Virus record (IMG/VR): IMGVR_UViG_3300045988_130745
From: a virus
DNA length: 64,000 bases
Strand: one strand, 5' to 3'
In this document: piece by piece, positions 1,627 to 49,073 of the stretch
Numbering within the stretch: the first letter of the stretch is position 1
How the letters are laid out: the number at the start of each line of letters is the position of its first letter
Position numbers and translations under genes: made by a program
The notes under the pieces: generated by a model
The model's input: only the letters and a program-made list of their open reading frames with translations
Databases searched by the model: none
Told to the model about the DNA's origin: nothing

Positions 1627-1700
1627 TGGGGTATAACCTAATGGCAGGGTAGTGGACTTTGACTCCATATGTAAAGGTTCGATTCCTTTTACCCCAACCA
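1627..1700 (+). tRNA. tRNA-Gln (UUG)
   Basis: U1-A72 acceptor tggggta/tacccca, anticodon loop CTTTGAC, T loop TTCGATT, CCA encoded. Confidence 0.8.
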
Positions 1701-2629: not shown

Positions 2630-2845
2630 TAATCAAATTAGATATAGTATAATAGACGATCAACAAAATATTACGCTTGCTTGTTGCGCCATAAGACAGA
2701 ATGAAATGGTTCTGTTGCGAGAAATCTGGTTGGAGAATCGGGAATACCAGTATCTAATTTATATGCAGATTAGGCTGAATTGTGTGAATCAGTAAATCTT
2801 CCATTAGCTGGACGGACTGATAGACCGAAAGCACTATCATTTTAT

Positions 2846-2920
2846 GCGAGTGTAGTTTAATGGTAAAATATCGGCCTCCAAAACCGTATGATTAAGGTTC
2901 AAATCCTTAGACTCGTGCCA
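2846..2920 (+). tRNA. tRNA-Trp (CCA)
   Basis: Acceptor gcgagtg/gactcgt with one mismatch, anticodon loop CTCCAAA, T loop TTCAAAT, CCA encoded. Anticodon stem is weak (3 bp). Confidence 0.65.
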
Positions 2921-2949
2921 TCAGAACAAATGAATTAAGGAGTGGTTTT

Positions 2950-3201
2950 ATGACTAGGACTGAAGATTTTAGACGCAAAGCCGCGAAGAAGCACATTCAC
3001 AAGCGCGAGAATATCATTAAAAATGTGTATTGTGATAAGGCTTGGTTTGACACAATTAAATCTCAATCACATCGCTTATCAAAAGGTAAAGTTCATTGTT
3101 CTTGTCCTCTTTGCGCCTTTCATGGTGAAACTCGCCAAGATTTGCGTAACCGTCTCGCGCAGATAAATAAGATTAAAGACTATATTGAGGAAGGATTCTA
3201 A
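2950..3201 (+). CDS. hypothetical small basic protein with a CxC...CxxC cluster
   Basis: 83-aa ORF from the track, ATG preceded by AAGGAG. Confidence 0.5.
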   Translation: MTRTEDFRRKAAKKHIHKRENIIKNVYCDKAWFDTIKSQSHRLSKGKVHCSCPLCAFHGETRQDLRNRLAQINKIKDYIEEGF

Positions 3202-3482
3202 TGTTTCGTGAAGTAACTATTGATTCTTTTCGACAGATTAGAGCGCTTCAAAGTACCGCGTGCTAGTATAATGTTCCTATTGGGATTCATGATGCAAATG
3301 GTTCTATTGCAGACGCAAAAAGCATTCTTGGTTTAATGAGTTTAGATTATTCTAAACCAGTAAAGATTGTCGTAGAAGATGAAGATAATTGTCTTTTAAA
3401 TATTCTTGCAAGATGTCTATCTGACGAAGATTGCTTGTGTGCGACTTTTGAACGCTTAAATCCTTGTTTGAAAAAGAATTAA
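3201..3482 (+). CDS. HPr-like domain protein lacking the phospho-His
   Basis: TAATG start overlap. Sequence ANGSIADAKSILGLMSLDYSKPVKIVVEDED resembles the HPr core. One in-frame TAG. No His at the HPr His15-equivalent position. Confidence 0.4.
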
Positions 3483-3486
3483 TAAT

Positions 3487-3515
3487 TTGACTTGAGAGTT
3501 AAATTATGATATACT
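3487..3515 (+). promoter_or_regulatory. family-type promoter (variant -10 TATACT) for the suppressor tRNA
   Basis: TTGACT 3487-3492, 17-nt spacer, TGATATACT. A leader hairpin tgagagatgaatttcatctctca follows. Confidence 0.65.
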
Positions 3516-3557
3516 AATTATAGAATCTGAGAGATGAATTTCATCTCTCAATTATAT

Positions 3558-3633
3558 TGACCTTTCAGATAATGGTTAGTCTAGGTGGCTCTAACCCACC
3601 ATGTCTCGGTTCGATTCCAGAGAAGGTCAGCCA
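3558..3633 (+). tRNA. amber-suppressor tRNA (anticodon CUA) with tRNA-Gln-like identity features
   Basis: Anticodon stem ggtgg/ccacc with loop CTCTAAC. Acceptor tgacctt/aaggtca gives U1-A72 and G73, as in bacterial tRNA-Gln. T loop TTCGATT, with a bulged A in the T stem. CCA encoded. Confidence 0.8.
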
Positions 3634-3637
3634 TAGC

Positions 3638-3690
3638 GAGACAGTCGCAGCAATTTATTTTGTATGGCATTTACAGAAAAAGCTGTCTTG
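3638..3690 (+). ncRNA. stem-CAGCAA element E0
   Basis: Terminal helix gagacag/ctgtctt with CAGCAA just inside the 5' strand and a 3' G. Member of a 10-copy family. Confidence 0.5.
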
Positions 3691-3709
3691 AAATAAAATA
3701 AGTTTATGT

Positions 3710-3740
3710 GTCTGGGATATTGCTATTCCAGACATTTTTT
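3710..3740 (+). terminator. intrinsic terminator
   Basis: Stem gtctgg/ccagac followed by a T6 run. Confidence 0.65.
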
Positions 3741-3752
3741 GTATGAGGTAAA

Positions 3753-4322
3753 ATGGAATATTTCACTGGAAAAGGACGTTTAGATTTTGTTAAAGCAATA
3801 ACTGAATTGTTTTGCACGGAATTTCCCTAGACATTGCTGTATTACCGAACTTTTTTTAATTAGTTTTGGTATAAAAGGATTGATAAAAACAATTTTTGGA
3901 TAGATTTATTTCTTGGAATTATTCAATTAGATTTACCAATAGAGAATAAATCTTTTGAAGAAATCGAACAAATTATTTAGAAAATTTTTGTTTTAAATGA
4001 TTAGTATTTAAAATTGGAGATTAACAAAGAAGCAAGAAAACAAATGATTTAGTTTATTTCTTTTTTAATCTGTTATTTCAATTTAAAAGATGTTTCAAAT
4101 TTATCCAATAAAATTCAAATTGTTCAATTAAATTCTTTCCCGCCTAATTCTTTTTTTGGGATATGGGCAATGGAAATTGCTCATAGTTTAAAAATTACAG
4201 ACGGCTGGGAAGAATCAATTATTAAAGAAAATTCTGCACTTGTAGAAGAAACAATAAAACGTTATTATCTGCGCCGGGAGGCTTATTATGAAGACATACT
4301 AGAATGTTAGGGCTAGGATTGA
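3753..4322 (+). CDS. hypothetical protein (TAG-rich), first gene of cluster A
   Basis: Open 190-codon frame only if TAG is sense. ATG 3753, TGA 4320-4322. Absent from the ORF track because of its TAG codons. Confidence 0.5.
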
Positions 4323-4365
4323 CATAGAAGAAGCGCGAAAATATAAGACTTTAAATTTTAAGAAT

Positions 4366-4590
4366 ATGAGTTTGCGTAATCTAATTCAATTAATTTTGAA
4401 AACTTGCCAAGATGAAAGCATAGACCCGACAATTTTGAAAGAATCTTTTGAAAAATATTCTCAAGATTATGTAAAAAATTCAGAAGAGCTTACTAATCTT
4501 GCGCGTGAAATAGCTTTTAAATATGCAGGTAATGTCCCTTGTAATAGAGAAACTAATAATCTTAATTATGTAATTTATCCAGAAGAATAG
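4366..4590 (+). CDS. hypothetical protein
   Basis: 74-aa ORF from the track, directly upstream of radical SAM gene A1. Confidence 0.5.
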   Translation: MSLRNLIQLILKTCQDESIDPTILKESFEKYSQDYVKNSEELTNLAREIAFKYAGNVPCNRETNNLNYVIYPEE

Positions 4591-4606
4591 GAGATAGTAT
4601 ATACTT

Positions 4607-5974
4607 ATGCCGCACAGATTTAAAACATACCAAGAAGAAGTTGCGGAAGCTTTACTTCCTGTTGATTTAGTTACAAAAGGAGATTATTATTTAGGAGCTT
4701 GCCGTGAAGTAACATTTTAGATTACTAATGCCTGTAATTTAAGATGTGATTATTGCTACGAATGTAATAAAAGTTCAGAGAATATGTCTCTTGAAACTGG
4801 CAAGAAAATTTGTGATTTAATTTTAAAAGAAATAGATAAGCCAGAAGGATTTTTAGGACGAAAAACTTTAAGAGGTTTAATTCTTGAATTCATTGGTGGT
4901 GAGCCTTTGCTTTGCCCAGATTTAATTGATGGAATTATGTCTTATTTTCTGCCGCGCTTATATATAATTCGCCCTGAACTTGTTCCTTTTGTGAGAATTA
5001 GCTTAACAACTAATGGACAAAATTATTTTGATTCAAAAGTACAGAAATTTTTGAAAAAATATGAAAGCATTATTAGTCTAACTGTTTCTATTGATGGAAT
5101 AAAGGAATTACATGACGCTCATAGAGTCACAATCGACGGTAAAGGCTCTTTTGATAAGGCTATCGCAGCTTTTGAAGACGCAAAAGCACGGGGATGGAGC
5201 TATAGCAAAATGACTTTTGTTCCTCAAAGTTTTCCTTATATTGCGGATTCAATTAAATTTTTAATCAGTGAAAGTATCCAAGATATTTTTTGTAATTATG
5301 CTTATGAACCTTATTATAATCAAAAGGACGCTAAAGAATTTTATTATCAAATGAAAGAAGTAAGTGATTATTTATTTGATAATAATTTAAAAGACATTTA
5401 TATTTCTTGTCTTGATATGCTTGCGGATGGTAAAAGCTCTATGGAGGGAAATTATTGCGGTGGCACTGGTAATATGCTTTCTTTTGATATGAAAGGTAGA
5501 ACTTTTCCTTGCCTACGCTATCATCCCACCTGTCTTGGAGAAGAACTTTCAAGTACCGTTTAGCTCGGAGATTACAATGGTCTTTATCAAACTGAAGCGC
5601 AATGTAAGGCAAGAGATTGTTTAAATTGTATTACTTATAAATCTCAATCAGAACAAAAATGTATTGATTGTCCTGTTAGTTCTAATTGTGGCTGGTGCAG
5701 TGCGAATAATTTGCAAATGACTGGTTCAATTAATAAACGAGTAACTAATATTTGCTGGGCACATAAAGGAAGAGTTTTAGCTGGGTATTATTATTCTGCC
5801 AAACGTTATTTATTATGGCATGATTTTCGTCCTATGAAAATTTGTTTACCAGACGAAGATGCACTTCAAATTATTTCTCAATCTGAGTGGGATGGATTAA
5901 AAGCATTGGTAAATGAAGCAATTACTGTCTTCGAGAAAGAAAAAGACCCTCTACTTATTTCTTAGGAGGGATGA
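4607..5974 (+). CDS. radical SAM / SPASM-domain maturase A1 (anaerobic sulfatase-maturase-like)
   Basis: VTF[TAG]ITNACNLRCDYCYE gives the CxxxCxxC motif. GGEPLL is present. C-terminal CIDCPVSSNCGWC is SPASM-like. Track fragments 4784-5563 and 5711-5965 join in frame through TAG codons. TGA at 5972-5974. Confidence 0.8.
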
Positions 5975-5977
5975 TTT

Positions 5978-6625
5978 ATGAGTTTAACAAAAGGCAGTAA
6001 AGTTGAAGCTTCAGATTGGAATAATCTCGCTGATGCTTATAATTCTGAAATTGTTGATCGTCGAAAGGTAACTAACGTTAAAATCACTGGCGCGCAGATA
6101 GAATAGCAGATTAATTCTAATTCTACTATTGAGCCTTTAATTGCGGGATTGACTGCAACTACAAATGGCAGAATGGTTAATGAAGATGGTTCTTTAAGTT
6201 CTAACACTTATTCAGTTGCAAAAGGTAGAGGGACTTTGATTTATCCTCTTGAAGATCATCAAAAAGTTCTTTTACAGCTTTCTAAAATTAGTGTTTTTGC
6301 AGAGCCAGGTAAGAGCGGTTGCTACGGTAGCTGTGCTGGGTTATGTGCAAGCGGATGTATGGGCAATTGTAAAAATACTTGTACTGCGGCTTGTAAAAAC
6401 GATTGCGAGGGAACTTGTAAAACAGGTTGTACTTCATGTACCGGCACTTGTTCTGGCGGTTGTTCTAGCTGTTAGGGTGGCTGTGAAGGTTCTTGTTCTG
6501 GCGGTTGTAAAGATAGTTGTGTCCAAGAATGTAAATCAAGTTGTCATGATGCTTGTATGGGTTGCCAAAGTTCTCATGCAAGTTAGGGTTGTTCTTATTG
6601 CGAATGTGGTAATTATCCAGGGTGA
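5978..6625 (+). CDS. Cys-rich CxxxC-repeat protein (candidate maturase substrate)
   Basis: 215 aa. About 100 N-terminal residues lack Cys. Then comes a run of more than 25 Cys, mostly spaced CxxxC (CYGSCAGLCASGCMGNCKNTCTAAC...). Three in-frame TAG. TGA at 6623-6625. Confidence 0.75.
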
Positions 6626-6630
6626 TTTAT

Positions 6631-7221
6631 ATGTATCAAGATGGATATGTTACGCGCAGGGGATTTCTTCAAAAAGTTAAAGATGCTATATTTGATATAG
6701 ATATTGATGGAGAATTAAACGATTTTATTTTTAATCGTAAATGTTATGGACCATCAGATTATTCTCTCTTGCCCTTATTATTTTTAAAACTTGTGGCTTT
6801 ACGAAAAATTAATCATGTTCATCTTGAAAAAAATATCCGTTTTATTGTTGATAAAGCGGATATTTATTTTAATTTAGTTTAGCCGCAATATCACAAAGAA
6901 TTTGTTAATCAATTATCTTTATTGCTTTTATTCTTAATGCGGAGTGATAAATTAGCAATTATATTGTCTCAGAATTAGCTAATTCAAGAGATACTCAATT
7001 TTAAATTATTAAATAATTATATTATTATTTATTTTGCTTATATAGTTTTTAAAGAATTTGAAAGTGTTTATTCCTAGGGGAAATATTTAAAGTATTTCCG
7101 CGCGAAAAATCTTTCAATTATTTCTAATCAACTTTATATTTTAAATAATCATATTGAACAAGTAGAATATTTAATTTATAAAGATTATGAAGAAACTTGG
7201 ATGTGGACTTATGGTGACTAA
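6631..7221 (+). CDS. hypothetical protein (cluster A)
   Basis: ATG 6631. The frame continues through several TAG codons to the TAA at 7219-7221. Confidence 0.5.
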
Positions 7222-7540
7222 AAGAGTTTTTTAGCTAAGTGAAAAAGATAGAATTGAATTGATAAATTTAAACCATAGTATTTAGTCATATGAATAGTTT
7301 ATAGCTTTTATTACTAAATAGTTCTATTCAGACACTTGTGTTATTGAGCATAGCGTTTTAAAAGATTGGCTAATTAATTATTCCGAATAGCTGATTGCTT
7401 GGATAGAATAGAGAAATAGATTATGGGAGTCTATTAATGCTCAATTTGAATATAATATTTTGACGATTCCGAAGATTAAAAATATTTCTTATTCTATTGA
7501 TGCAGAGAAAGGAGTAATTATTTATTGTTATGAAAATTGA
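7211..7540 (+). CDS. hypothetical protein (cluster A)
   Basis: ATG 7211. 110-codon frame is open only with TAG as sense. TGA 7538-7540. Overlaps both neighbours. Confidence 0.4.
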
Positions 7541-8810
7541 AAAACGCTTTGGAGCGATGGCTAATTCTGCTTCTATTGTTTTTTAGATTACGGAATCTTG
7601 TAATTTAAATTGCTCTTATTGCTACTAGCATTTTAAAAGTCCTCGGACATTAGATTTAAATACTGCAATAAAAGAATGTCAAGAAATAATTCGGCTTCTT
7701 GAACAAGAAAATGGAATTTTAGGTAAAAATAATGTAAAAGAATTGACTATTTCTTTTATTGGCGGCGAACCATTTCTTTATCCAGAAATAATGGATATGA
7801 TAATTTAGATGTTAATGTCAGGTATCTCTATTGTAAGACCGGATTTATTACCTTTCATAAGACTTTCATTAAATACCAATGGTACACTTTTATAGAGAGA
7901 AGATGTAAAAAAATTTATTCTTAAACATGAAGATATATTAAATATTGCTCTTTCTCTTGATGGTATTAAAGAATTGCATGATAAAAATAGAATTAACCAA
8001 AAAGGAGAAGGAAGTTTTGACAAGGCTTTTAAAAATGGTTTATGGCTAAAAAAGCATGGCCTAGACCATATTAAAATGACTTTTTCAAAAGAAGATATTA
8101 ATTATATAGCTCCCTCTTTAAAATTTTTTCTTGAAAATGGTTTTAAACATATTGTCAGTACACCTATTTACGAAGACATTTATACCAAAAAAGATGCCCA
8201 ATAGGTTTATAAACAATGTAAAGAAATTGGGCAATACGTAATTAGCAATAAAATTTGGGATGAAAGAATTAGTATTCTCAACGAATACCCCGGATAGATT
8301 CTTGATTTTTCTAATTACCCTTGTGAAATTTTCGGAGATTCATTTTGTTTTTCAGTTGATGGGAAAGCATATCCATGTTGTCGTTTTGCTTCAACTTCTT
8401 TAAATAATAATTGTATAAATTATTCAATAGGAGATTGTGAGAAAGGGATTTTTAATTCAAATGATACCCTTTCGCGCGAAGAATTGAAAAAAATGACAGT
8501 CAATACTTGGATTGATAATGAATGTTTGAATTGTCCAATTTCTGGTGGCTGTGGTTGGTGTCCTGCTTATTGCGCGGAATTAGGGCAATTTGGAAAACGC
8601 ACCAAAGGTAACTGTTGGTTTCATCGTGCAAAAATTTTAGCGCTTTATAATTATAAGAATTAGCGTTCGATTATTTTAGGAGACTGTCAACCAGAGCCTA
8701 TAAAAATTCCAGAAGAAATTGCTCTTAAAATTATATCCCAAGAAGAATATGATACTTTAAAAGAGCAATATAGAAAAGCAAAAATTGCGTAGGCTTCGCG
8801 CAATAAATAA
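7530..8810 (+). CDS. radical SAM / SPASM-domain maturase A2 (paralog of A1)
   Basis: IVF[TAG]ITESCNLNCSYCY[TAG] carries TAG at the same position as in A1. GGEPFL is present. CLNCPISGGCGWCPAYC is SPASM-like. 427 codons to the TAA at 8808-8810. Confidence 0.8.
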
Positions 8811-8811
8811 A

Positions 8812-8840
8812 TTGACTTTCCTTAATTCTTATGCTATAAT
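8812..8840 (+). promoter_or_regulatory. family promoter
   Basis: TTGACT 8812-8817 and TATAAT 8835-8840 plus ATTTATAGAAAATCAAGAGAG leader. Confidence 0.75.
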
Positions 8841-8879
8841 ATTTATAGAAAATCAAGAGAGAGAAAGGAATGATTAAGA

Positions 8880-9596
8880 ATGTATTTTCTTGGAGATGTT
8901 CATGCAGAATCTCCTTTAATGGAAGGTTTTCTTGAATCAAAAGAGAAATATTGCCTTCAATTAGGTGATTTCGGCTTTATTTTCAAGTATAATGATTGGA
9001 AATGGAATAAGTTTCTTAATCATTTCGCGCGAGATTATCCAGAAAAAATGATTTTCACTATTTTAGGTAATCACGAGAATTATGATTCTATTGAGAAAAT
9101 GCCAATTAAGACAATATTTGGTGCGCGGTGTAGAGAAATTCGTTCAAATGTGTACGCAGTAGAGCGTGGAGAAATCCTTTCTATTGAAGGACTGAATATT
9201 CTTTGTATTGGTGGCGCGGATTCTATTGATAAAGTATATCGAGAGCCTAAAGAATCTTGGTGGCATCAAGAAGCAATTACCAGTCAAGATGTTATTAAAA
9301 CCGTAGACAAAGGTTTAACTCATTCTTTTGATATGATTTGTTCTCATACAATGCCTGCATTTTTTATGGATAAAAAATTTGCAACGCTTTTTAACACAGG
9401 TTCAGAGTTTTCTCTTGAAAAAATTTATTGCGATATTGAAAACAATGATAAACATATTCCTTTGTGGCTTGGCGGCCACGTTCATGCTTCAATAAGTTTA
9501 TCTTATAATGATACTTTATTTCGTACTCTTAATATTGGAGAAGGAATTGAATATCGTCAAGGAGACTCAATTAAAGATAAATTTCTAATCCAATAA
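8880..9596 (+). CDS. calcineurin-like metallophosphoesterase
   Basis: GDVH, GDFG, GNHE and GGHVH motifs in canonical order. No TAG. Confidence 0.75.
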   Translation: MYFLGDVHAESPLMEGFLESKEKYCLQLGDFGFIFKYNDWKWNKFLNHFARDYPEKMIFTILGNHENYDSIEKMPIKTIFGARCREIRSNVYAVERGEILSIEGLNILCIGGADSIDKVYREPKESWWHQEAITSQDVIKTVDKGLTHSFDMICSHTMPAFFMDKKFATLFNTGSEFSLEKIYCDIENNDKHIPLWLGGHVHASISLSYNDTLFRTLNIGEGIEYRQGDSIKDKFLIQ

Positions 9597-9625
9597 TTGA
9601 CTTTTTAAAGATTATATGCTATAAT
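9597..9625 (+). promoter_or_regulatory. family promoter
   Basis: TTGACT 9597-9602 and TATAAT 9620-9625. Confidence 0.75.
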
Positions 9626-9657
9626 ATTTATAGAAAATCGGAAAGGAAATAAATTTT

Positions 9658-9873
9658 ATGGAAAAGATTAAGACTTCTCGCTATGCGCTTGGTACTAATT
9701 ATACTATGCCGGGTTCGGTGACTAATTTTGATAATTTCTTCATTGATAAGAAGAATGCTAAGGCAGTTTATACTAAATACACTCGTTTTGCCGCAAAGCG
9801 AGATAAGGAAATGGGTTTGATTACTGATGCGGCTTACAATGAGATTATGCGCCAGTTGAGTTTTAGGAAGTAA
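9658..9873 (+). CDS. hypothetical protein (GC-richer, TAG-free)
   Basis: 71-aa ORF with an SD-like GGAAAGGAAA upstream. CGT/GCT-rich codon usage like 10482-11972. Confidence 0.6.
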   Translation: MEKIKTSRYALGTNYTMPGSVTNFDNFFIDKKNAKAVYTKYTRFAAKRDKEMGLITDAAYNEIMRQLSFRK

Positions 9874-9885
9874 GAAATGAAATAA

Positions 9886-9914
9886 TTGACTTTCTATGAA
9901 TGTTATGATATAAT
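9886..9914 (+). promoter_or_regulatory. family promoter
   Basis: TTGACT 9886-9891 and TATAAT 9909-9914. Drives E1 and tRNA-Leu. Confidence 0.75.
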
Positions 9915-9930
9915 ATTTATAGAAACTTGA

Positions 9931-9989
9931 GAGACGATTACAGCAAGATTTAAACATAATGCTGTGAACTTATGGAAAAAATCGTCTCG
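9931..9989 (+). ncRNA. stem-CAGCAA element E1
   Basis: Helix gagacgatt/aatcgtctc, CAGCAA after the 5' strand, inner hairpin acagca/tgctgt, 3' G then TTTT. Confidence 0.5.
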
Positions 9990-9995
9990 TTTTAT

Positions 9996-10082
9996 GCTCG
10001 TGTGGTGGAATTGGCAGACACCAGGGACTTAAAATCCCTTGTTGGAAACAGCGTGCGGGTTCAAATCCCGCCATGAGCACCA
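9996..10082 (+). tRNA. tRNA-Leu (UAA), type II
   Basis: Acceptor gctcgtg/catgagc, anticodon loop CTTAAAA, long variable arm, T loop TTCAAAT, CCA encoded. Confidence 0.85.
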
Positions 10083-12528: not shown

Positions 12529-12534
12529 TTTTAT

Positions 12535-12625
12535 ACTCCCTTATCTCAACGGTAGAGAAGCGGACTTATAACCCGTATTAGCACCAGATTAGTGCATGAT
12601 GTCCGTTCGAATCGGACAGGGAGTA
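12535..12625 (+). tRNA. type-II-like tRNA with UAU anticodon (identity ambiguous)
   Basis: Acceptor actccct/agggagt, anticodon loop CTTATAA, 24-nt variable arm with a gcac/gtgc stem, T arm gtccg-TTCGAAT-cggac. No encoded CCA. Confidence 0.55.
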
Positions 12626-12632
12626 TTTATAT

Positions 12633-12793: not shown

Positions 12794-13588
12794 ATGTATA
12801 ATCCTATTTGTGGTATTTATAAAATTACTAATTTGATTAATGGACATTGCTATATTGGGCAAAGTAGGAATATTAAGAAACGATGGGAAGAGCATCGAAC
12901 TAGAGCTTTTAATATTAAAGATGATGGATATAATTATCCTCTTTATAAAAGTTTTAGAAAATATGGTCTTTAGAACTTTTCTTTTGAAATAATTGAGCAA
13001 TGCTCAGAAAAGTAGTTAAACGAAAAAGAAAATTATTGGATTTAGTTTTATTAGGCAAATTATAATTAGACTATTGGACAAGATTATTAGGTAGTTCCTA
13101 AAAAATTAACAATAGAGGAAGTACAAGAAATACAAAATTACTTAATTGAAAGTTCAAATGATTCTTTAGATATTTCATTAAAATAGTTGGCAGAAAATTA
13201 TCATGTTTCTTAGCTTACTATTCGAGATATTAATGTAGGACGTTCTTGGGCTAATAGTAAATTAAAATATCCTTTGTACCAATCTAAATATAATCCGAAT
13301 AATAAAATAACTAATAACTATTGTCCTATTTGCGGATAGAAAATTTCTTAGAAAGCTAAATTTTGTCCTCAGTATTATTCAACTATAAATATCAGTCCTC
13401 GAAAAAGTAAAATTAATATCACAAGAGAAGAATTAAAAAGACGAATTAGAATAGAATCTTTTTCTTAGATAAGCAAAGATTTTAATGTTAGTGATAATGG
13501 TATAAGAAAGAAATGCCAAAAGCTAAATCTTCCTTATCGTAAGAAAGATATAGATACTTATTCTGATGAAGAATGGGCAAAACTTTAA
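12794..13588 (+). CDS. GIY-YIG homing-endonuclease-like protein (copy b)
   Basis: MYNPICGIYKITNLINGHCYIGQS... 265 codons are open only with TAG as sense (many TAG). C-terminus resembles copies a, c and d. Conserved leader upstream. Confidence 0.85.
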
Positions 13589-19829: not shown

Positions 19830-20900
19830 ATGGGAATTTTGTTCTCTGTAATAGGAGCACTCGTTGGCGCAATTATAGTTTATATTATAATGCGCAGGCG
19901 CCAAGAAGAAATTAAACAAATCAATAGGGCGCAATTAGAAGCGTTTGATAAAGAAGTTCAAGAGAAAAAGGTAGTTACTTAGCGTTTAATAGATTCTTAT
20001 AATGAATCACTTGAGCGTGCAAAACAAGAAAATAATAAGGCGTTAGAACACGCGAGACGATACAATCAAGAACAATTAAAGCAAGTTCAATCAGATTATT
20101 ATAATAAAGTTCAAGATTATACTAATCAAGCGGAAGAACAAAAGACCTTTCTAAACAGGGATATTGCCGAGCTTCAGGCTAAGATTGTTGCTCTTGAAAA
20201 AGACTATGATCATAAGATTGCTGATTTTGATAGGCAATGGTAGTCTTTGATGAAAGAACGCCGTGAAGCGATGGATAAATTAGAAGAAGAGAATTTGGAT
20301 GATTACCTTGATTAGCAAATGTCTCTTGAATCTCAATATCAAAAGGACAAAGCAAAACTTTAGTCTGAGATCAATAATTTATCTGCTTTGCGCGCGAGCC
20401 TTATTGAAGCGCAAATTCGTGAACAAAAGCTAAAAGATGAACAAGACTTTTATCGTATTCATCTTTCTATTGATGCTCAAGAGGATATTGATAAATTACT
20501 TCGTTTTGCTAAAGAGTGCCACAGTCAACAACCTTTGCGCAAATTGATTTGGAGTGAATACTTCTTAAAGCCTTTCGGTGAAATGGCAGGACGTATCCTT
20601 GGTAAGGACAAAATTTCTGGCATTTACAAGATTACTAATATTAAAGACGGTAAAATATATATTGGGCAGAGTACGGATATAAAAACTCGTTGGTCCAATC
20701 ATATCAAAGCCGCGCTCAAAATAGATTCAATAGCTCATTCAAGAGTCCACGATGCGATGGGTGACGAAGGTATTTGGAACTTTACTTTTGAGTTATTGGA
20801 GCAATGCCCAAAGGAGAAGCTAAATGAGCGAGAGAAATATTACATAGAATTTTATCAATCAAATATCTATGGATATAATAAGACTATTGGTGGAGCTTAA
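19830..20900 (+). CDS. membrane-anchored coiled-coil protein with C-terminal GIY-YIG nuclease domain
   Basis: N-terminal TM helix MGILFSVIGALVGAIIVYIIM, about 180 aa of heptad-like Q/E/K-rich sequence with TAG codons, then GIYKITNIKDGKIYIGQSTDIKTRWSNH. Confidence 0.7.
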
Positions 20901-26232: not shown

Positions 26233-26634
26233 ATGCTCAAGGCTAGAATACAACTTAAAAAAGACACCAGCGAGGCTTGGCGCATCAATAATCCTGTTCT
26301 ATTGGATGGCGAAGCTGGTTATGAATCAGATACAAATTTAATGAAAGTTGGCGATGGGATTCATCGCTGGCTTGAATTAGACTATACAAACTCTGGTGCA
26401 ACTGCGATAGCAAGTACAGCTAACTATGCTATTAATGCTGGTGCGCTAGGCGGAACTTCTGCGGCTGATTGGGCTAAGAAGTTTGACAATTATGTTTTAA
26501 ATACTCGAATTGAAGCCGTTATGTCAACTGCTTCAGCCGCGGACAAAATACCAACCTCAATAGCAGTTACTAATTGGGTTAAGTCGCAAAATTTCGCGGG
26601 TGCCGGTGATATTACTACTTGGGAGGACTTTTAA
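26233..26634 (+). CDS. tail-fibre-like protein
   Basis: IQLKKDTSEAWRINNPVLLDGEAGYESDTNLMKVGDG resembles the N-terminal domain found in phage tropism and hyaluronidase-type fibres. Confidence 0.55.
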   Translation: MLKARIQLKKDTSEAWRINNPVLLDGEAGYESDTNLMKVGDGIHRWLELDYTNSGATAIASTANYAINAGALGGTSAADWAKKFDNYVLNTRIEAVMSTASAADKIPTSIAVTNWVKSQNFAGAGDITTWEDF

Positions 26635-28880
26635 TGGCTAATAAATTATTAAAACCAAAGAGAGGTAGGGTAGAGAACCTGCCTAAATTGGCTGTTGAAG
26701 ATGGCTCTCTTATTTTTGCTTATGATACCAAATCTCCCACTAGTACTGTTTTAGTTGATGTTGGAGAAACTAGATATGAATTATCTGCGGCGACGGCAAA
26801 GAAAGCAGATGATTCTAATGCTCTTGGCGGCAGTAGTCTTCAAAATATTGTTGACAAGATTGACAATGCGACGGGTGATGGAACTGCCTTTACTGGTTTA
26901 GATACTACTACTAATAATAAAGTAAAACTGACAAGAGCCAATGGAACTACAGTTGAAAAAACAATTAATAATGTTTCTAATGCTTCGACTGCTGATTACG
27001 CAAAAGTAAGCAATAAAATTGGAACTGGGACTATTGGTTCGTCAACTAAACCAGTTTATATTAATGCTGGTACCCCTACTGCGGTTAGCTCTATCCCATC
27101 TACTTTTGTTGCAGCATCGCAAATAAATGGTATTAATCTTGATACTTTGCGCACGCCAGGTATGTATTGGGCTGGTGGTGGCAATACTAATACTAATAAG
27201 CCCACGGGTATTGATGCTTTTGGTTTAGAAGTTCTTTAGAGTGCGGCCGGATGGTATACTCAAATTTGCTATGCTTCTGATGATTAGGAGAAACAATTCG
27301 TTCGTTATTATGATGCAGGAACAAAAGTTTGGAAAGATTGGGTTGAATAGAACCGTTTAAACACTAAAACTCAAAGTGGTTACGCCCCTGCACCGAATGC
27401 GGCAAATAAAGTTTATCGTACTGACGCGAGTGGCAATCCTGGTTGGGGCACATTAAACGACAGTTCTATTGGTAGACTTGCGTCTACTGTTACTTTTGGT
27501 GACGGTGGTCCTGCGGTAATTGATTAGAATAATGAAACTTATCGCCAGCGTATCAATATTTTCGATAATGCAACAGCTAATGACGCGGTATTTAGTTTCT
27601 AGCAATCAACAGATGCCGGTAAGACCTATAAAGATTTATTTGCTATTAATGATAATGGTACTGTTATTGCTGGTACATTTCAAGGCGCACTTAAAGGAAC
27701 AGCAGATTATTCAAAGAACTCTGGCGCTCTTGGTGGCAGTAGTTTAAAAAATATTATTGATAAAATTAATAGTTCTACTGGTGATGGTACCGCTTTTACT
27801 GGTTTAGATATAACTATAAACAATAAGGTTAAATTAACCAGAGCCAATGGTAGCACAGTTGAAAAGACAATCAATAATGTGTCTAATGCTTCAACTGCAA
27901 ACTATGCTAATAGCGCGGCAAATGCTTCGACAGCAGAGTATGCTAAAAGCGCACCACCAACCGTGAATTCTGTCAATTATGTCCGAGTTTATAATAGTTC
28001 CAATGTCGGTGGAAGCAATACTGTAACTGTCAATGATTTATCAAAGAAGCATTTTGCTCAAGGCATGATTAATTCTGCGACTGATAATCCATTAGGTAAA
28101 GCTGGCTGGGTTCATGTGCAAAGTATGGCTTGGGCAGATGGTAGTGATTAGTGGGCTTCTCAAATTGCTTTTGATGTTCAAAATGGTACTGGCGCTTACT
28201 ATCGTTCTTCTAACGGCAGTGGACATTTAGCTGGACGTGACTGGAATAAATTCCTTGATAGTTCAAATTATACAGAATATGCTGCTGATAGAACTGCTCT
28301 TGTAAGCGCTTTGGCATCCAGCTCAAAAGTCACTTTTACAAGGGCAAATGCGGGAACATTTGCTATCAATATTAACTATGTAGAAAATGCTTCGACAGCA
28401 AATAATGCAAACAAGCTAGGCGGACTTCCATCAAGTGAGTACGCCCTTAAAAGCCAATTAAGTGGTGATATTAATGCTTTGTCTGCTAAACGCTTGCCAT
28501 CTTATCAATCAATCTCTGTAGCTAACTCTTTCTTCTATCGTTACGGTACAGCTGGTAATACTTCTGATGGCGGAGCTTGGACTGGATTTCCTTCAGCGAT
28601 TCTCTACAATGCCGATTCAACTGTTAATGGCTTCGGCAATGCGCTTTTTCAAAAGAAAGTTGGTGTTCTTCACTTAGCAGCTGGTTCTTCTGCTCATGAC
28701 CTTGTATTTCAAGCTGGAGGTACCAATGGCGGTATTGCTTATGTTGCAACTGGACGTAATCCCGCATACATTCTCGACACTCTTAACTACAAAGATAAAG
28801 CATATACATTTAACAAATTAACTGCAACCAGTACATTTACGGCAACTGGTGGCGTAGTTATTGACGGGGGAAGTTATTAA
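26634..28880 (+). CDS. large tail fibre protein with an internal duplicated module
   Basis: 749 codons, assembled in frame from track ORFs 26619-27239, 27879-28151 and 28311-28880 through TAG codons. Confidence 0.65.
26820..27000 (+). repeat. intragenic repeat, copy 1 (about 180 nt)
   Basis: GGSSLQNIVDKIDNATGDGTAFTGLDTTTNNKVKLTRANGTTVEKTINNVSNASTADYA recurs with few changes at 27727-27907. Confidence 0.75.
27727..27907 (+). repeat. intragenic repeat, copy 2
   Basis: GGSSLKNIIDKINSSTGDGTAFTGLDITINNKVKLTRANGSTVEKTINNVSNASTANYA. Confidence 0.75.
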
Positions 28881-31357: not shown

Positions 31358-31757
31358 ATGGGTAATATTCCAAGAACTACCCCCCCCCCCCGATACATCA
31401 TTAAGTCTATCGGGAGTGGCGGCAGATTCTAAAATAGTTGGCGATTAGATTTCAAATTTAACATCATCTTTAGATACTAAATTTTTTTCATCTGAAATTC
31501 CTGCTAATTCGACTTTAACCTAGTCGTTTGACAAATTACGTTATGGACATGGGCAATGCGGTTCTGTTTATCTGTCTGCATCAAATGGCGTGCCGGCTTC
31601 ATGGTATTGGTATATTTACATACCTCATCGAGATGGTGGCAATGTTAGTGGCAGCGATAATATGCAATATGGTGTTTTAATCTTAATTGATTTTTGGTCA
31701 AATGCTTTTTATATCGCACGTTATACAAATGGCACAATTAATGTCCGTTCAATTTAA
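31358..31757 (+). CDS. tail-module protein interrupted by a C12 tract (out of frame as sequenced)
   Basis: ATG 31358 gives MGNIPRTT then the poly-C tract. The long downstream frame (DTSLSLSGVAADSKIVGD... to the TAA at 31755-31757) is in another phase. C11 or C14 would fuse the two. Confidence 0.5.
31380..31391 (+). repeat. homopolymer C12
   Basis: Read directly from the sequence. Confidence 0.9.
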
Positions 31758-31776: not shown

Positions 31777-32327
31777 ATGGGGAGTATTCCTAGAGCTAAT
31801 ACCCCCCCCCCGTAATAGATAAAACTCTATCGGTGGAGGGTGCAGTAGCAGAAAGTAAAGCGGTTGGTGACAAATTTAATTCAACAATTTTATCTTCGCC
31901 GTTATATAAATCAAAATTTGTTACCGGCTTAGGAATTTACAATTACAATTTTGGCCAACTTGCGACTAATGTAATTACAAAATATCAAGATGGTTCTTTT
32001 CTTGTTGAAATTACATTTGTAGGACATTAGCATAGCATTAGCTCAAATTCAGCTTTTGATTGGCTAAGCGGCAATGGCTTAACAGAAGACGCAAAAAGTC
32101 TAACTGGTAAAAGCAATTATAAACCAACAGCTAATTGTTTCCCCCTATTGGGCAAAGGAGTAATTCCTGCCGAAGAAGGATATAGTCCTTATGTTAGATT
32201 AACTGGAATTAATGGACATCTAAGAGTTGGACGTATTTATGAAGCAACTGCCAATCTAGGTGATTACCAGAACTCTGTATAGCACACTGGTAATTATAGT
32301 TTTAGAATTACTTTAATTCTTTATTAA
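31777..32327 (+). CDS. paralogous tail-module protein interrupted by a C10 tract (out of frame as sequenced)
   Basis: ATG 31777 gives MGSIPRAN then the poly-C tract. The downstream frame (VIDKTLSVEGAVAESKAVGD... to the TAA at 32325-32327) needs C8 or C11 to fuse. Confidence 0.5.
31802..31811 (+). repeat. homopolymer C10
   Basis: Read directly from the sequence. Confidence 0.9.
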
Positions 32328-37143: not shown

Positions 37144-37461
37144 ATGGACATAATTACACTTGCGTTGACTCGTAAGGCAGTTAGAGATGCTCACGTTGAC
37201 CATATAGGACCACAAGGACCGGTTGGACCGAAAGGTGAGAAAGGCGATAAAGGTGACCCATTTACTTGGAACGATCTCACTGCGGAGCAAAAGAAAGAAT
37301 TAACTGGTCCAAAAGGTGATAAAGGCGATACAGGTGGAGTTGGCTATGTCTCTTTTGAGAGTGGCAACGATGGACACTTGTACGCCGTTATTGCCGAAGG
37401 GACTGATGAAATCAGTTTCAGAATTTCCGATGATGGTAAGCTGGAGGTAATCTACGCATGA
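37144..37461 (+). CDS. small collagen-like protein
   Basis: 105 aa with [17 protein letters not shown] and [10 protein letters not shown] blocks. Confidence 0.6.
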
Positions 37462-39881
37462 GTAAAAGAATAGATTTAGGCGCAGTAACCGCTTACGCCA
37501 TTGCAGTTAAAAATGGATTTGAAGGCACAGAAGTAGCCTGGCTTGCAAGTCTTAAAGGTGCAAAGGGCGACAGGGGTGAAAAAGGCGAGCAAGGCGCGCC
37601 AGGTATTTAGGGAGAAAGAGGAGCAACTGGTGAAACTGGCCCTATTGGCCCTCAAGGTATCCAAGGACCAAGAGGTGCTCAAGGTGAGAAAGGAGATACT
37701 GGCAATGTCGGCCCAGCTGGTCCTCAAGGACTAAAAGGCGAAACTGGTGCAGTTGGACCAGCTGGGCCGCAAGGTAAGCAAGGCATCCAAGGTGAAAAAG
37801 GTGAAACTGGTGCTGCAGGCGCCCGAGGTGAACAAGGTCCGCAAGGTATTCAAGGCATTCAAGGTCCAAAAGGCGAGAAAGGCGATCCTTTCAGTATAAA
37901 GAAAATTTATGTTTCTGTTGCTGCAATGAATGCTGATTTTGACGGTACTGATACTTCTACTGGTGATTTTGTTCTTATTAACACTGGCAATGTTGCAGAT
38001 GAAGATAATGCAAAGCTCTATGTAAAAGGCGAGAGTGCTTTTACTTTTGTCACTGATTTGTCCGGCGCGGCTGGTATACAAGGTCCGCAAGGTCCTCAAG
38101 GAGTGCAGGGTGTTCAAGGAGAACAAGGTATTCCGGGTGTAAAGGGTGACAAAGGTGATCCAGGCTCTGATGCAACTGTCACTACTGATAATATCACCTC
38201 TGCTCTTGGCTATACTCCCGCAGATTCAACCAAAGTTTACACTAAAACTGAAGTTGACGGAATGATTGATGGTGTTTATGCTCAAGCCGTTCGCAATGCG
38301 ACTTCTGTTGCTCAAGTCAACGGCTTGTTCCAAGAGTGGTGGAAGAAAAATTGGGTTGAAGATACCTCCACCCACACTCAAATGCTTGAGCGTTGGTTTG
38401 GAAATGTTCTTACCAGTAGCAAGGTTTATGGTACCAAGCTACCTTTGTTTGCTACTTCAAATAGTGCAAATGGCGAGTATATTGACGATTCTGTTGGCAT
38501 GACTTGCACTCCTTCAACTAACGCAGTTCTTGGTCAAGATGACTTCGCATTCAAGCCAGAGTTCTGGTGCATCGAAGCATCTGGTGAGCATAATTCTGAC
38601 GGTTCAATTACTATCTATGCTGTTGAATTAATTGATGACATTGCTACCGTTCGTTCTGGCGAGCATTTGACTTGGGTTCTTCAAAAGAATACTTATTGGC
38701 ATGAATATACCAGTGAAGGTTATCATTTCGTCGAACTCAAATCAACTCCTGATGAAACTTGGCATCGTTGGCCGCAAGGTACATCAAAAGATGGTACAGT
38801 TCATGAGTTTATTGCTAACCCGAAGTATTATGCCGGAATGAAAGATGGAACTATTACTGTTGGCACTAATCTTCCTGCAATTAATTTTACTTCTCATCAA
38901 TCTGGCGTTGCTCTATGGCGCAAGCGTGGCAGTCAATACTCTGGCGCGAGTGGCAACCTTATCAAGTTCCTTGATATTATGATGAAGTTAAAGTATGCTA
39001 AGAAAGGTAACTCTGGGACTATTGAAGGTTGTTCAAACTATAACTGGCAATATACTACTCCTGTTGGCGAGACAGGCGTAGAACGTATTATTGTTACTAC
39101 CGCGCAGGGTGCAAATATTAAAGTTGGCTCAACTGTTATTATTGGTAAGAAAGGCGGCTCTACCGATCGTGGCGATAGTGCTATGAGAAGCCTTGTTTCA
39201 ATGAAGAAAGTCAAAAGTTTGGAGCCAGTCACTATTGATGATACTTCTTATACAGCCGTTAATATTGATAATGGCGGAACAACTTTTGATACAGTTGCGA
39301 GTGAGACAATGATTTCTTCTATGCCTTATCACTCTGGATACAATGACAACGTATTAGGTTATGATGGCAGTGCAACTAATTACACCAATGGTTCTGAACC
39401 TGGTTTGCTCCAGAAGATTGAGTTCCAGAATGGTGCTTATCTGATTATTTCAGATGAATTGTGGCAATGGAGCAAAGATGATACAAACTATATGTTTGAT
39501 TGCTATACTTGCCATGATTAGTCAAAAGTTACTACTAATGGAACAATTTCTTCTGACTATACAAAGCAAGCTGATTTGACTTTGAAGTGGGCAGTTGAGG
39601 GTGCTAATACAAGTTGGCACTGGGAATATATTGAAGATACTGCAATCGCTAATGATCCAGCAGTTTGCTGGCCAGCTAAAGTATCCACGACAGCTGGTAG
39701 CGGAACTGGTTGTAAAGCTGGCTTCGGCGTCGCTTTGGCGTCGTCTGGTGTGCGTGCTGGTTGGTGTTTCTGCGGTTTGTGGGGTGGCGGTCTTTGTGGT
39801 GTTTCAGCTCGTAACTCGGACGTTTCTCCTTCGTATTCTGGCTGGTACGGGGCGCTCGGCGGTCCAGGTCTTGCGGGGTGA
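37458..39881 (+). CDS. collagen-like tail fibre protein carrying the DGR variable region at its C-terminus
   Basis: ATGA overlap start. 807 codons in one frame, joining track ORFs 37926-39521 and 39576-39881 through TAG. GXY blocks are present. The last roughly 55 codons are the VR. Confidence 0.8.
39719..39865 (+). repeat. DGR variable repeat (VR)
   Basis: 147 nt align without gaps to 40222-40368. All 19 mismatches I counted sit at adenines of the other copy. Confidence 0.85.
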
Positions 39882-39920
39882 ATCGAAGCCTAGGAGCACG
39901 AAGTGCGGATAGGCAAGAGA

Positions 39921-39936
39921 GGGGACGCAAGTCCCC
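39921..39936 (+). promoter_or_regulatory. GC hairpin downstream of VR (candidate DGR target-recognition hairpin)
   Basis: ggggac-GCAA-gtcccc, a 6-bp stem with a GNRA-type loop, about 55 nt after the VR end. Confidence 0.45.
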
Positions 39937-40221
39937 GTTATAATGGAAACGACCCATCCGTGCGATACGCCCGACTGTTGACTCGATCTCAATTGAATGC
40001 AGCAATAGCATGATTTAATTGAACCATTAACTTTCAAGTCTTGTTTCATACGAAACCGAGATAGATTCAATGACTTTACCGCCATTCAAGAATCTATATA
40101 ACCTAGAATAAAATTCCAAGGATACGATTCAAAGTTTAGGGAAGGATTTCTCTACTACAAAATCCTCCATTCAGTTCTTTCGGCGCTTAACGAAAGTAGG
40201 GACGTATTCCGTTGGCAGATT

Positions 40222-40368
40222 TGGCTTCAACGTCAATTTGGCGTCGTCTGGTGTGCGTGCTGGTTGGTGTTTCTACAATTTGTAGAATGGCGGTAATTGT
40301 GGTGTTTCAGCTCGTAACTCGAACAATTCTCCTTCGAATTCTAACTGGAACGGGGCGCTCGGCGGTCC
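40222..40368 (+). repeat. DGR template repeat (TR)
   Basis: Adenine-rich copy with many AAC/AAT triplets. Invariant GC-rich end GGGGCGCTCGGCGGTCC is shared with VR (IMH-like). Confidence 0.85.
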
Positions 40369-40566
40369 TAGCCGGTCTTGCTTGCGGAGCAGTTTTACAA
40401 CAATAATGCGGATTACGTTCCTAGACTTATTTAGTTGAAATTGCTCCTGCGTAGTCAAGACCGGCTTATTTTTTTATTCAGAAAAGAATAAGCTTAACCG
40501 CGTCTAGTAGCTTCGGCGAAAGTCGCACGGGGAGACCGGCCAAAGGACTAATAAGGAGGGCTACTT

Positions 40567-41874
40567 ATAAAGACTTTTTGTAAGCCCGCAAATACTAATA
40601 TATGCGATCCAGAGTTTATTTACTGGGCGGTTTATGATTGTGTTAAGCATAAACTTTATCGTAATGATTTTCTTGATTTATTATGTACTCAAACAGGTAT
40701 ATCTCGCCGCGTAGTGATAAAGGAGCGTTCACAATTAAATGAATCAACTCCTATGATTGACGGCGCAATCAAGAAATTATCTGAAAAATGCGCTCAAATG
40801 ATTGCTGATAACAAACTTAAATTTAGAGAACTTCGTCAATTCAATCGAGTTGATGGTATTTCTGGAAAGAAAAGAGATATTTGTCAAGAATCTCCTCTCC
40901 AGCAAGTATTTGAATACATCGCGGTTTACGCACTTCAACCACTTTTTGATGCTAAAATTTTATATTGCCAATTTGGCAGTATCCCAGGTAAGGGACAAGT
41001 CAAGGGCGCGCAAAGAATTTCATATATTCTCAATAGTCCAAAGTTCAAAGACAAACGAGTGGACTGTATTAAATGTGACGTCCGCAAGGCTTATCCATCA
41101 ACAAAAGTAAGCACTGTTCATAATCTTATCACTAAATATTGCGGTAAGAATAAATAGTTAATTGGTTTAGTTGATGCTATCATGGCAAACTACCCTAATC
41201 ACCATTTAATTATTGGTGGCTACTTTTCCACTTGGACATTTAATTTAGTAATGAGTGAAGTTTTGCGTGAGTTTAATAAACTTTATAAAGAGCGCCGTGG
41301 ACAGCGAATTAAACTGGTCGAAAAAATTGTTTGCTATGCAGATGATTTTCTCTTGTTTGGATACAAGTCCAATTTGGAGCGTGCGATTAAGACAGTTGCT
41401 AAACGTATTAAAGCACAATTTGGTTTAGAAATCAAAAATGTCTGGACGATAATTCAATTCCCATCTAAAGAGGTTGAAAACCATCCTCGCTATAAAAATA
41501 CTTTTATTGATATGATGGGTTTCAGAATTTATCGCCATTACCGTGGCATCCGCAAGAAAATTTTTCGCAGAGCGCGTAGACAATTTATCCGTGCAAATCA
41601 ACTCTCTTATGTACCTGTTTGGAGAGCGCGAAAAGTTGCGGCATATAATAGCTGGCTTACATATTCTAAAAGTCGTGGAGTAATCCTCAATTATCATATA
41701 AATACCCTAATGAATCGTTCGAAGCAATCCATATCTAATCATTCTAGGGAGGAATTGACAAGTTATGAAAGAGACTTATTGCTCTATCCCGAAAGCTGTT
41801 TTGACTTTCCCCGTTGGCGGAAAAACCGACGTTATTTTGAGGAAAAATATCGAAAAAGTCACCAAACAGGGTAA
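40567..41874 (+). CDS. DGR reverse transcriptase
   Basis: YADDFLLFG gives the YxDD motif, and IPGKGQVKG is present. Track ORFs 40714-41157 and 41182-41874 are in frame and join through one TAG. The frame is open from 40555, just after AAGGAGG. No canonical start exists before the GTG at 40714, so the 5' end is uncertain. Confidence 0.75.
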
Positions 41875-48989: not shown

Positions 48990-49073
48990 CCCTCATTAGA
49001 CCATAAGGATTGGGGTGGGTCTGTAAAACCCATGCGTTTCGCCGGGATGGTTCGATACCATCATGAGGGACCA
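48990..49073 (+). tRNA. tRNA-Tyr (GUA), type II
   Basis: Acceptor ccctcat/atgaggg, anticodon stem tgggt/accca with loop CTGTAAA, long variable arm, T arm gatgg-TTCGATA-ccatc, CCA encoded. Confidence 0.8.

Follow-up and report, generated by a model that had tools for sequence, protein, structure and literature searches.

The 64,000-nucleotide (nt) DNA of IMG/VR virus record IMGVR_UViG_3300045988_130745, analyzed over its whole length and called the window here, contains at positions 3487 to 3741 of its + strand a short transcription unit with a single transfer RNA (tRNA) gene. This gene has the anticodon CUA and is designated tRNA(CUA) below. We conclude that the unit is very probably a monocistronic phage gene for a glutamine-type amber suppressor tRNA, acting by the mechanism that we propose below.

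The tRNA(CUA) gene and its transcription unit

ARAGORN located a 76-nt tRNA at 3558 to 3633 on the + strand, with the anticodon cta at position 34 and the label "Pyl," which the program assigns automatically to a CUA anticodon. In a scan of 401 nt with Infernal, the Rfam tRNA model RF00005 accepted the fold and aligned to 3558 to 3629 in the same anticodon register (31.5 bits against a gathering score of 29, E = 7.6e-5), covering model positions 1 to 70 of 71. A base-by-base reading agreed with both programs and bore out the preliminary description of this DNA, which had placed a tRNA here with the anticodon stem ggtgg/ccacc and the loop CTCTAAC. The stem GGTGG/CCACC has 5 bp and closes a 7-nt loop (3589 to 3595), in which C32 and U33 precede the anticodon CTA (3591 to 3593, positions 34 to 36) and A37, a purine, and C38 follow it. 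The acceptor stem TGACCTT/AAGGTCA gives U1-A72, G2-C71, and A3-U70 and is followed by the discriminator base G73 (3630) and an encoded CCA (3631 to 3633), so that the combination of U1-A72 with G73 claimed earlier is indeed present. Two bases separate the acceptor stem from the D stem (AGAU/GUCU, with an 8-nt D loop), and the variable loop, ATGT, has 4 nt.

The T arm, CTCGG-TTCGATT-CC[A]GAG, lacks a regular 5-bp stem. The bulged A of the preliminary description was recovered as A3619. The Infernal alignment and the minimum-free-energy fold, which is a cloverleaf, agree in placing it as an extra base on the 3' side of the T stem, between what correspond to positions 62 and 63. The tRNA(CUA) gene is real but atypical. 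It is the sole CUA tRNA among the about 30 tRNA genes that ARAGORN (28 genes, all on the + strand) and Rfam together recover in the window, and it has the lowest score among those recovered with the Rfam tRNA model.

We then compared the gene with its relatives. None of its 76 columns varies among about ten relatives, versus 898 of 7,191 columns (12.5%) across positions 2840 to 10030 (P about 4e-5), and 10 IMG/VR contigs of 20 to 179 kb carry the gene unchanged, bulged A3619 included. tRNA(CUA) thus appears to be under purifying selection. Searches of IMG/VR with T-arm and 5'-half patterns found no divergent copy of tRNA(CUA), returning only the invariant sequence, chance matches, and tRNA-Lys; consequently, no compensatory changes in support of the cloverleaf were obtained. 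The tRNA-Lys(UUU) of a 267-kb jumbo-phage contig (L019, positions 5306 to 5381) has the identical T arm, CTCGGTTCGATTCC-A-GAG with the bulged A, and the same 18-nt T-arm sequence occurs in a tRNA-Lys(UUU) of a 359-kb contig (L018, positions 94 to 165), where the fold is ambiguous. Within the window, Infernal places a bulged U in the anticodon stem of tRNA-Arg(CCU) (62621 to 62697), for which ARAGORN gives an odd anticodon. Irregular tRNA stems are evidently tolerated in these phages. The gene at 62621 had been considered as a second suppressor and was rejected, as it encodes this tRNA-Arg(CCU). Two other tRNAs deviate as well: tRNA-Tyr(GUA) (48990 to 49073) is found by ARAGORN and missed by the Rfam tRNA model, and tRNA-Ile(UAU) (12534 to 12626) has 93 nt in the window and 78 nt in the relative L002.

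Searches of GenBank phages for near and for distant nucleotide matches to the region and to the tRNA came back empty, and a protein search found only remote Firmicutes-phage relatives, the nearest being a Clostridium innocuum phage at 38% identity. A scan of genome contigs with the 17-mer of the anticodon arm returned 24 matches, 23 of which were chance occurrences outside any tRNA; the single true tRNA belonged to a different phage type in an Erysipelotrichaceae metagenome-assembled genome. Contigs with homologues (50% identity) of the radical-SAM proteins of the window had no tRNA near those genes. Promoters of the -35/extended -10 type and strong Shine-Dalgarno sites suggest, together with the closest protein relatives, that the host is probably a member of the Bacillota that uses the standard code.

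The tRNA gene lies behind a sigma-70-type promoter with an extended -10 element (3487 to 3515), composed of TTGACT, a 17-nt spacer ending in TG, and TATACT. The pattern TTGACT-N16-18-TATAMT has 20 matches in the window, all on the + strand, where 0.13 are expected, and the suppressor promoter is the only TATACT copy among them, in agreement with the variant family promoter that had been claimed. The relative L011 has TATAAT at this position. Alignment of the 20 copies, which lie between 1047 and 62799, defined a module of ∼60 nt consisting, in order, of TTGACTTT, a spacer ending in TATG, TATAAT (TATGMTATAAT), ATTTATAGAAA, and a ribosome-binding site of the AAGAGAGGAA type.

The transcribed leader of the suppressor unit (3516 to 3557) contains the conserved initial transcribed sequence AATTATAGAAT, corresponding to the family consensus ATTTATAGAAA, and transcription probably starts near 3522. 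The leader hairpin proposed earlier lies at 3528 to 3550, where 10 bp close a loop of 3 nt (-13.7 kcal/mol, z = -3.0). It pairs the sequence GAGAG, which serves as the ribosome-binding site before the ATG in the protein-coding copies of the module and which is instead sequestered in a hairpin in the tRNA units; a similar hairpin stands behind the promoter in each of the units for tRNA-His, tRNA-Leu, and tRNA-Cys. In the leader stem, relatives show three changes, each turning an A-U or a G-C pair into G-U as read on the + strand, as would be expected of a structured RNA.

Downstream of the tRNA, the preliminary description had seen a stem next to a CAGCAA element and then a terminator. The CAGCAA element and the terminator stood, and the short stem next to CAGCAA did not, as it is not kept in relatives. 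The 3' trailer (3637 to 3690) carries an AGAC-N-CAGCAA motif, and its GAGACAG (3638 to 3644) can pair with CTGTCTT (3683 to 3689), both arms being unchanged in relatives. AGAC-N5-9-CAGCAA has nine matches on the + strand against 0.66 expected, seven of them intergenic and in tRNA units; copies lie at 3639, 9932, 10376, 12112, 12392, 13912 (a longer-spaced extra copy), 14241, and 47660. In five of eight copies, AGACNNN can pair with NNNGTCT 40 to 85 nt further downstream. AT-rich sequence comes after the motif, T-arm-like tRNA remnants come after some of the copies, and the element has no match in Rfam. The intrinsic terminator (3708 to 3741) combines a 12-bp stem (3708 to 3735) with a T run (-15.5 kcal/mol, z = -5.2), and among the terminator-like sites of the first 15 kb only one ranks higher. 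Since it closes the unit, we predict a monocistronic primary transcript of ∼220 nt.

In-frame TAG codons and their reading as glutamine

Reading through TAG raises the coverage of the + strand by open reading frames (ORFs) from 0.70 to 0.88. Treating TAA as a sense codon raises it just as much in this AT-rich DNA (36% GC), so that coverage is a weak indicator and the argument for recoding rests on homology. A simple gene call yielded 87 genes outside the tRNAs, ending in TAA (56 genes) or TGA (30 genes), with one gene cut by the end of the window. In-frame TAGs number 133 and fall in 44 of the 87 genes, and this abundance in conserved genes, together with the single CUA tRNA of the window, upholds the claim of a dedicated amber suppressor. 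Compared with 427 CAA and 124 CAG codons, TAG makes up about one-fifth of the glutamine-type codons and is commoner than CAG. Long ORFs with 1 to 13 in-frame TAGs include those for NrdD, a UvrD-like helicase, radical-SAM and YcaO proteins, GIY-YIG endonucleases, and collagen-like tail fibers, and Pfam domains span TAGs in the YcaO, Radical_SAM, and GIY-YIG proteins. The per-gene anticorrelation between the use of TAG and that of CAA plus CAG was not significant. To judge from its genes, the window is TAG-recoded ("code 15") phage DNA, and it needs translation table 15, as the standard code fragments about half of the genes.

We then asked which amino acid TAG specifies, and four independent lines agree on glutamine. 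First, we compared the window with ten IMG/VR contigs that are ∼95% identical to it over 1 to 14 kb and found 14 distinct events in which TAG stands against another codon, namely CAG in seven events and CAA, a two-base change, in four. In the other three events, TAG stood against ATG or TAT at one site and against CGG at a second, and among the 14 there was no exchange with GAG, AAG, TGG, TAA, or TGA. Second, in an invariant motif of five GIY-YIG paralogues, two have YIG-Q-S and three have YIG-TAG-S. Third, two radical-SAM paralogues carry F-TAG-IT ahead of a CxxxCxxC motif, and all 18 homologues at ∼50% identity, which themselves contain no TAG, have glutamine at this position. Fourth, the collagen-like repeats of the form G-I-?-G contain CAA 12 times and TAG once at the third position. 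These comparisons indicate that TAG is a glutamine codon in this phage.

The tRNA itself points in the same direction. The window encodes an ordinary tRNA-Gln(UUG) at 1627 to 1700 (+ strand), detected with ARAGORN and Rfam, and of the 27 in-window tRNAs compared, it and tRNA(CUA) alone combine U1-A72 with a CU-NNN-AC anticodon loop. tRNA-Gln also gave the best global alignment score for tRNA(CUA), at ∼63% identity. Both have G2-C71, A10, U13-G22, and an encoded CCA; the D loop begins with AAUGG in each, and they agree in the variable loop (AUGU) and in GG-UUCGAUU-CC of the T arm. They differ in the anticodon, in pair 3-70, and in all stem sequences, and tRNA-Gln(UUG) has no T-stem bulge; moreover, tRNA-Gln(UUG) sits in a polycistronic tRNA cluster, whereas tRNA(CUA) has a unit of its own.

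No release factor or aminoacyl-tRNA synthetase was found among the window ORFs of 330 amino acids or more, each of which was either assigned or inspected, and since no cognate synthetase lies nearby, tRNA(CUA) presumably relies on charging by the host. The window does encode a YqeY-like protein (43553 to 44002; PF09424, 49.9 bits; phrog_1460, "tRNA amidotransferase"), the gene for which is TAG-free and stands behind the family promoter at 42958. YqeY proteins share homology with the tRNA-Gln-binding tail of GatB. The phage protein might assist the formation of Gln-tRNA; a link to recoding is speculative, and YqeY is also present in standard-code T4-like phages.

Proposed timing of TAG-bearing genes and alternative explanations

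We then looked into the distribution of TAG relative to the family promoters. The nine genes that start at most 120 nt from a family promoter contain no TAG in 1,518 codons, against 133 in the 16,324 codons of the remaining genes (Fisher P = 1.3e-5). Likewise, of the 21 genes that lie no more than 1 kb from a family promoter, 3 carry TAG, as against 37 of the 61 more distant genes (P = 3e-4). Blocks without such promoters, at 3.7 to 8.8 kb, 18.9 to 41.9 kb (tail fibers, e.g., genes 26634 to 28880 and 37458 to 39881), and 55.3 to 60.6 kb, are rich in TAG. One promoter-proximal gene (50565 to 50798) ends in ELG-TAG-GTA-TAG-TGA, i.e., G-TAG-V-TAG-TGA, and several other genes have a TAG 2 to 6 codons before their final TAA or TGA. 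These terminal TAGs look like former stops that are read through to a back-up stop. The operon at 3753 to 8810, directly downstream of the suppressor unit, has 32 TAGs and no family promoter of its own; its expression may, speculatively, depend on read-through of the suppressor terminator.

We propose the following mechanism. Host RNA polymerase with the primary sigma factor would transcribe the unit from a slightly weakened (TATACT) copy of the early module, as suggested by the match to the consensus and by the family context. The 36-nt leader would fold and hide the GAGAG that resembles a ribosome-binding site, this being a suggested purpose for a computed hairpin. RNase P and 3' trimming would then release a 76-nt tRNA that already bears its CCA. 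The host machinery would load glutamine, either through glutaminyl-tRNA synthetase (GlnRS) or through a nondiscriminating glutamyl-tRNA synthetase (GluRS) followed by GatCAB, U1-A72 being used by both routes. The charged tRNA would decode UAG as glutamine in presumed competition with release factor 1 (RF1) of the host, so that the TAG-bearing genes (44 or more), among them those for the tail fibers, the radical-SAM/YcaO clusters, NrdD, and the homing endonucleases, would become translatable. The tRNA would accumulate in the early phase, along with the products of the TAG-free genes, and TAG-bearing messages would be translatable only later. As the first genes behind the family promoters are free of TAG and the suppressor has the same class of promoter, it is probably made early and probably gates the TAG-bearing genes, which would amount to a translational delay and not to a separate transcriptional program. 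By eye, no common motif that might mark a second (late) promoter class was seen upstream of the TAG-rich operons.

Several observations weigh against this reading, and we discuss them with the alternatives that they favor. We give some credence to the possibility that the suppressor is functional but is made constitutively with the other phage tRNAs and has no role in timing, the TAGs having accrued neutrally by codon capture in AT-rich DNA. Its promoter class recurs in 19 other units, seven of them likewise tRNA units, and thus gives no sign of special regulation for the suppressor. The early/late split is not clean either: the genes for NrdD and a methyltransferase, presumably not late, have one TAG each, radical-SAM genes carry TAGs too, and TAG-rich homing endonuclease genes lie inside early-type tRNA units. 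In the window genes, TAG and CAG have similar +4 contexts, with no sign of special selection beyond this, and the TAGs are spread along the genes with a slight C-terminal excess, as expected from old stops that are read through. Against the proposed mechanism stands also one gene with 13 TAGs, at which the tRNA would have to outcompete RF1. Neutral accrual does not readily account for the absence of TAG from the first genes behind family promoters or for its rarity in promoter-proximal genes (the two tests above), nor for the early gene that ends in G-TAG-V-TAG-TGA as if TAG were still a stop, and the same pattern occurs across recoded phage clades (10.1101/2021.08.26.457843). If the suppressor does gate the TAG-bearing genes, gating would act on translation and not on transcription alone, given the TAG-dense endonuclease genes in early-type units.

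It is very unlikely that tRNA(CUA) inserts a residue other than glutamine, be it glutamate (charged by a nondiscriminating GluRS with no amidation by GatCAB), tryptophan, tyrosine, or lysine. Where positions vary, the residues opposite TAG are mixed and include glutamate, so that some slight chance of a different amino acid is left. C-Y-TAG-H aligns with glutamate in 18 of 18 homologues and in the paralogue, and at RW-TAG-EH the aligned residue is E, Q, R, or S. The U13-G22 pair and the 4-nt variable loop of tRNA(CUA) are also features of tRNA-Glu. In addition, the set of identity elements of E. coli GlnRS, reportedly that of Jahn, Rogers and Soll (1991), is incomplete in tRNA(CUA). The glutamine identity marks of the preliminary description are supported, with a caveat: U1-A72, G2-C71, G73, U35, and A37 are present and TAG behaves as glutamine, but G3-C70, G10, and U38 are replaced by A3-U70, A10, and C38. 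The comparison with tRNA-Gln(UUG) is divided in the same way, as U1-A72, the CU-NNN-AC loop, AUGU, and the T loop are common to both tRNAs and the discriminator is G73 in tRNA(CUA) versus A73 in tRNA-Gln(UUG). Since tRNA-Gln(UUG) likewise has A10 and C38, these two bases may reflect the host lineage. What speaks for glutamine is that 11 of the 14 exchanges are with CAG or CAA (four of them two-base changes) and none with GAG/GAA, TGG, AAG, or TAT/TAC only, that TAG occupies conserved glutamine positions, and that U1-A72 is shared with tRNA-Gln only.

We consider it highly improbable that the gene has decayed into a pseudogene, or that its tRNA-like fold is due to chance, with TAG read through by other means. 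Its Rfam score is marginal (31.5 against 29), and a scan of the whole window with RF00005 at the gathering threshold returned 28 tRNAs without tRNA(CUA) among them. The T stem is bulged, and shuffled sequences fold with comparable energy (z = -0.99). A pseudogene would nevertheless be hard to reconcile with 76 invariant bases between variable flanks, with a dedicated promoter and terminator, and with an exact CUA anticodon in a genome that has 133 in-frame TAGs; other tRNAs of this phage are also irregular yet conserved, and the jumbo-phage tRNA-Lys has the same bulged T arm.

The label "tRNA-Pyl" from ARAGORN, given to any CUA anticodon, carries almost no weight. In pyrrolysine tRNAs the D loop is very small, the anticodon stem has 6 bp, the variable loop has 3 nt, and a single base links the acceptor and D stems; they are accompanied by a PylRS. 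The corresponding values in tRNA(CUA) are 8 nt for the D loop, 5 bp, 4 nt, and two linker bases. The annotated ORFs of the window include no Pyl-type synthetase or pyl biosynthesis gene, and TAG behaves as glutamine.

The glutamine-type suppressor of the proposed mechanism can also be cast as a more elaborate translational timer of a Bacillota-infecting phage, in which a deliberately weakened promoter and the 5' hairpin and terminator set the dose of a tRNA that gates the TAG-dense radical-SAM operon next to it, the invariant T-stem bulge tunes binding to EF-Tu or the ribosome against RF1, and tRNA-dependent glutamine charging by the host is helped by YqeY. We regard this combination as a whole as unlikely.

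Neighboring elements and relation to known recoded phages

The homing endonuclease genes stand out among the TAG-bearing genes. Four paralogous GIY-YIG genes (1958 to 2629, 12794 to 13588, 45105 to 45881, and 48027 to 48773) are each found close behind the 3' end of a tRNA gene, and the product of 19830 to 20900 has a fifth GIY-YIG domain at its C terminus. The four genes are the most TAG-dense of the window, with 13, 11, 6, and 6 TAGs, or 36 per 1,000 codons. The segment from 1931 to 2840, which includes the first of them, is absent from the relatives L002, L005, L006, L011, and L016, which identifies it as a mobile insertion.

The window has other elements as well. The TAG-rich clusters at 4607 to 8810 and 55288 to 60636 resemble peptide-modification loci of the type that yields ribosomally synthesized and posttranslationally modified peptides (RiPP-like loci), an unusual cargo for a phage; together, they encode four radical-SAM/SPASM-type enzymes, a YcaO cyclodehydratase homologue, and Cys-rich small proteins (e.g., 5978 to 6625). 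A complete diversity-generating retroelement extends from 37458 to 41874. Its reverse transcriptase gene (40753 to 41874, Pfam RVT_1) is preceded by a template repeat (40222 to 40368), and the variable repeat (39719 to 39865) lies at the 3' end of a collagen-like tail-fiber gene (37458 to 39881). The two repeats of 147 nt are 87% identical, and all 19 mismatches fall at adenines of the template. Upstream of the collagen-like tail-fiber genes, two adjacent small paralogues, MGNIPRTT... (31358 to 31400) and MGSIPRAN... (about 31777 to 31830), have poly-C tracts (12 and 10 C) a few codons past their starts, and the frame of the first breaks after the tract, so that these tracts could reflect slipped-strand phase variation or an assembly error. 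Finally, the genes for an RtcB-type RNA ligase (63383 to 64000, cut by the window end), a nucleotidyltransferase (52927 to 53748), and a metallophosphoesterase (8880 to 9596) are all TAG-free and behind family promoters, and they may constitute a tRNA repair set that accompanies the ∼30 tRNA genes.

The overall arrangement is that of an already described phage type, the TAG-recoded ("code 15") phages. Suppressor tRNAs occur in all recoded clades, where TAG aligns with glutamine, early genes keep the standard code and late genes are recoded, and the code switch has been proposed to act as a timer (Borges et al., 10.1101/2021.08.26.457843). The same study notes that atypical suppressor tRNAs probably escape detection and counts crAss-like, Lak, Agate, Sapphire, Jade, Garnet, and other phages among the code-15 groups. 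The decoding of TAG as glutamine was shown by proteomics in crAss-like phages (Peters et al., PMC9523058), and phAss-1 (Phassvirus), a 136-kb gut phage with 36 tRNAs, has three glutamine-type tRNA-Sup-CTA and no synthetase (Babkin et al., PMC10607447). The window resembles these phages in its phage-encoded CUA tRNA, its many in-frame TAGs aligned with glutamine, its standard-code early genes and recoded structural genes with a proposed translational switch, and its lack of a cognate synthetase or release factor near the tRNA. It differs from them in belonging to a lineage with no near relative among GenBank phages and in having homing endonuclease genes as its most TAG-dense genes. Unlike the crAss-like and Lak phages, which infect Bacteroidota, the present phage has canonical sigma-70/Shine-Dalgarno-type promoters and ribosome-binding sites, and the window has one suppressor gene, compared with two or three copies in Phassvirus. 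The promoter and terminator architecture of a suppressor unit is not described in the three code-15 papers cited here, and the word "promoter" is absent from the Borges preprint.

A related arrangement is the "code change module" of Jade phages, in which a suppressor tRNA, TrpRS, and RF1 lie upstream of lysis genes (Borges et al., 10.1101/2021.08.26.457843). In the window, too, the suppressor sits in standard-code surroundings and directly upstream of a TAG-dense operon (3753 to 8810), but it has no synthetase or release factor beside it, and the genes downstream encode radical-SAM and Cys-rich proteins and not lysis functions.

A comparison with a bacterial suppressor is also instructive. E. 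coli supE (glnV44) is a tRNA-Gln(CUA) amber suppressor that inserts glutamine at UAG in competition with RF1. tRNA(CUA) is like it in having CUA with U35, A37, U1-A72, G2-C71, and G73 and differs in lacking G3-C70, G10, and U38 and in carrying a T-stem bulge. Furthermore, tRNA(CUA) is not a point mutant of the resident tRNA-Gln (∼63% identity), and it serves a genome-wide code change, whereas supE provides leaky suppression.

What the window adds to this phage type is the architecture of the promoter module, the monocistronic suppressor unit, the invariant T-stem bulge, and the absence of TAG from promoter-proximal genes. The marginal covariance-model score of tRNA(CUA) illustrates why the suppressor tRNAs of recoded phages go underdetected. 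To the recoded phages, the window adds a lineage that lacks relatives in GenBank, has contigs as long as 179 kb, uses sigma-70-type promoters, and probably infects Bacillota. The window also offers a legible case for the code switch as a timer, since a single promoter family marks the TAG-free early genes. With one monocistronic suppressor unit that has defined start and stop signals and with clients that carry 1 to 13 TAGs per gene, it provides a test case for such a timer.

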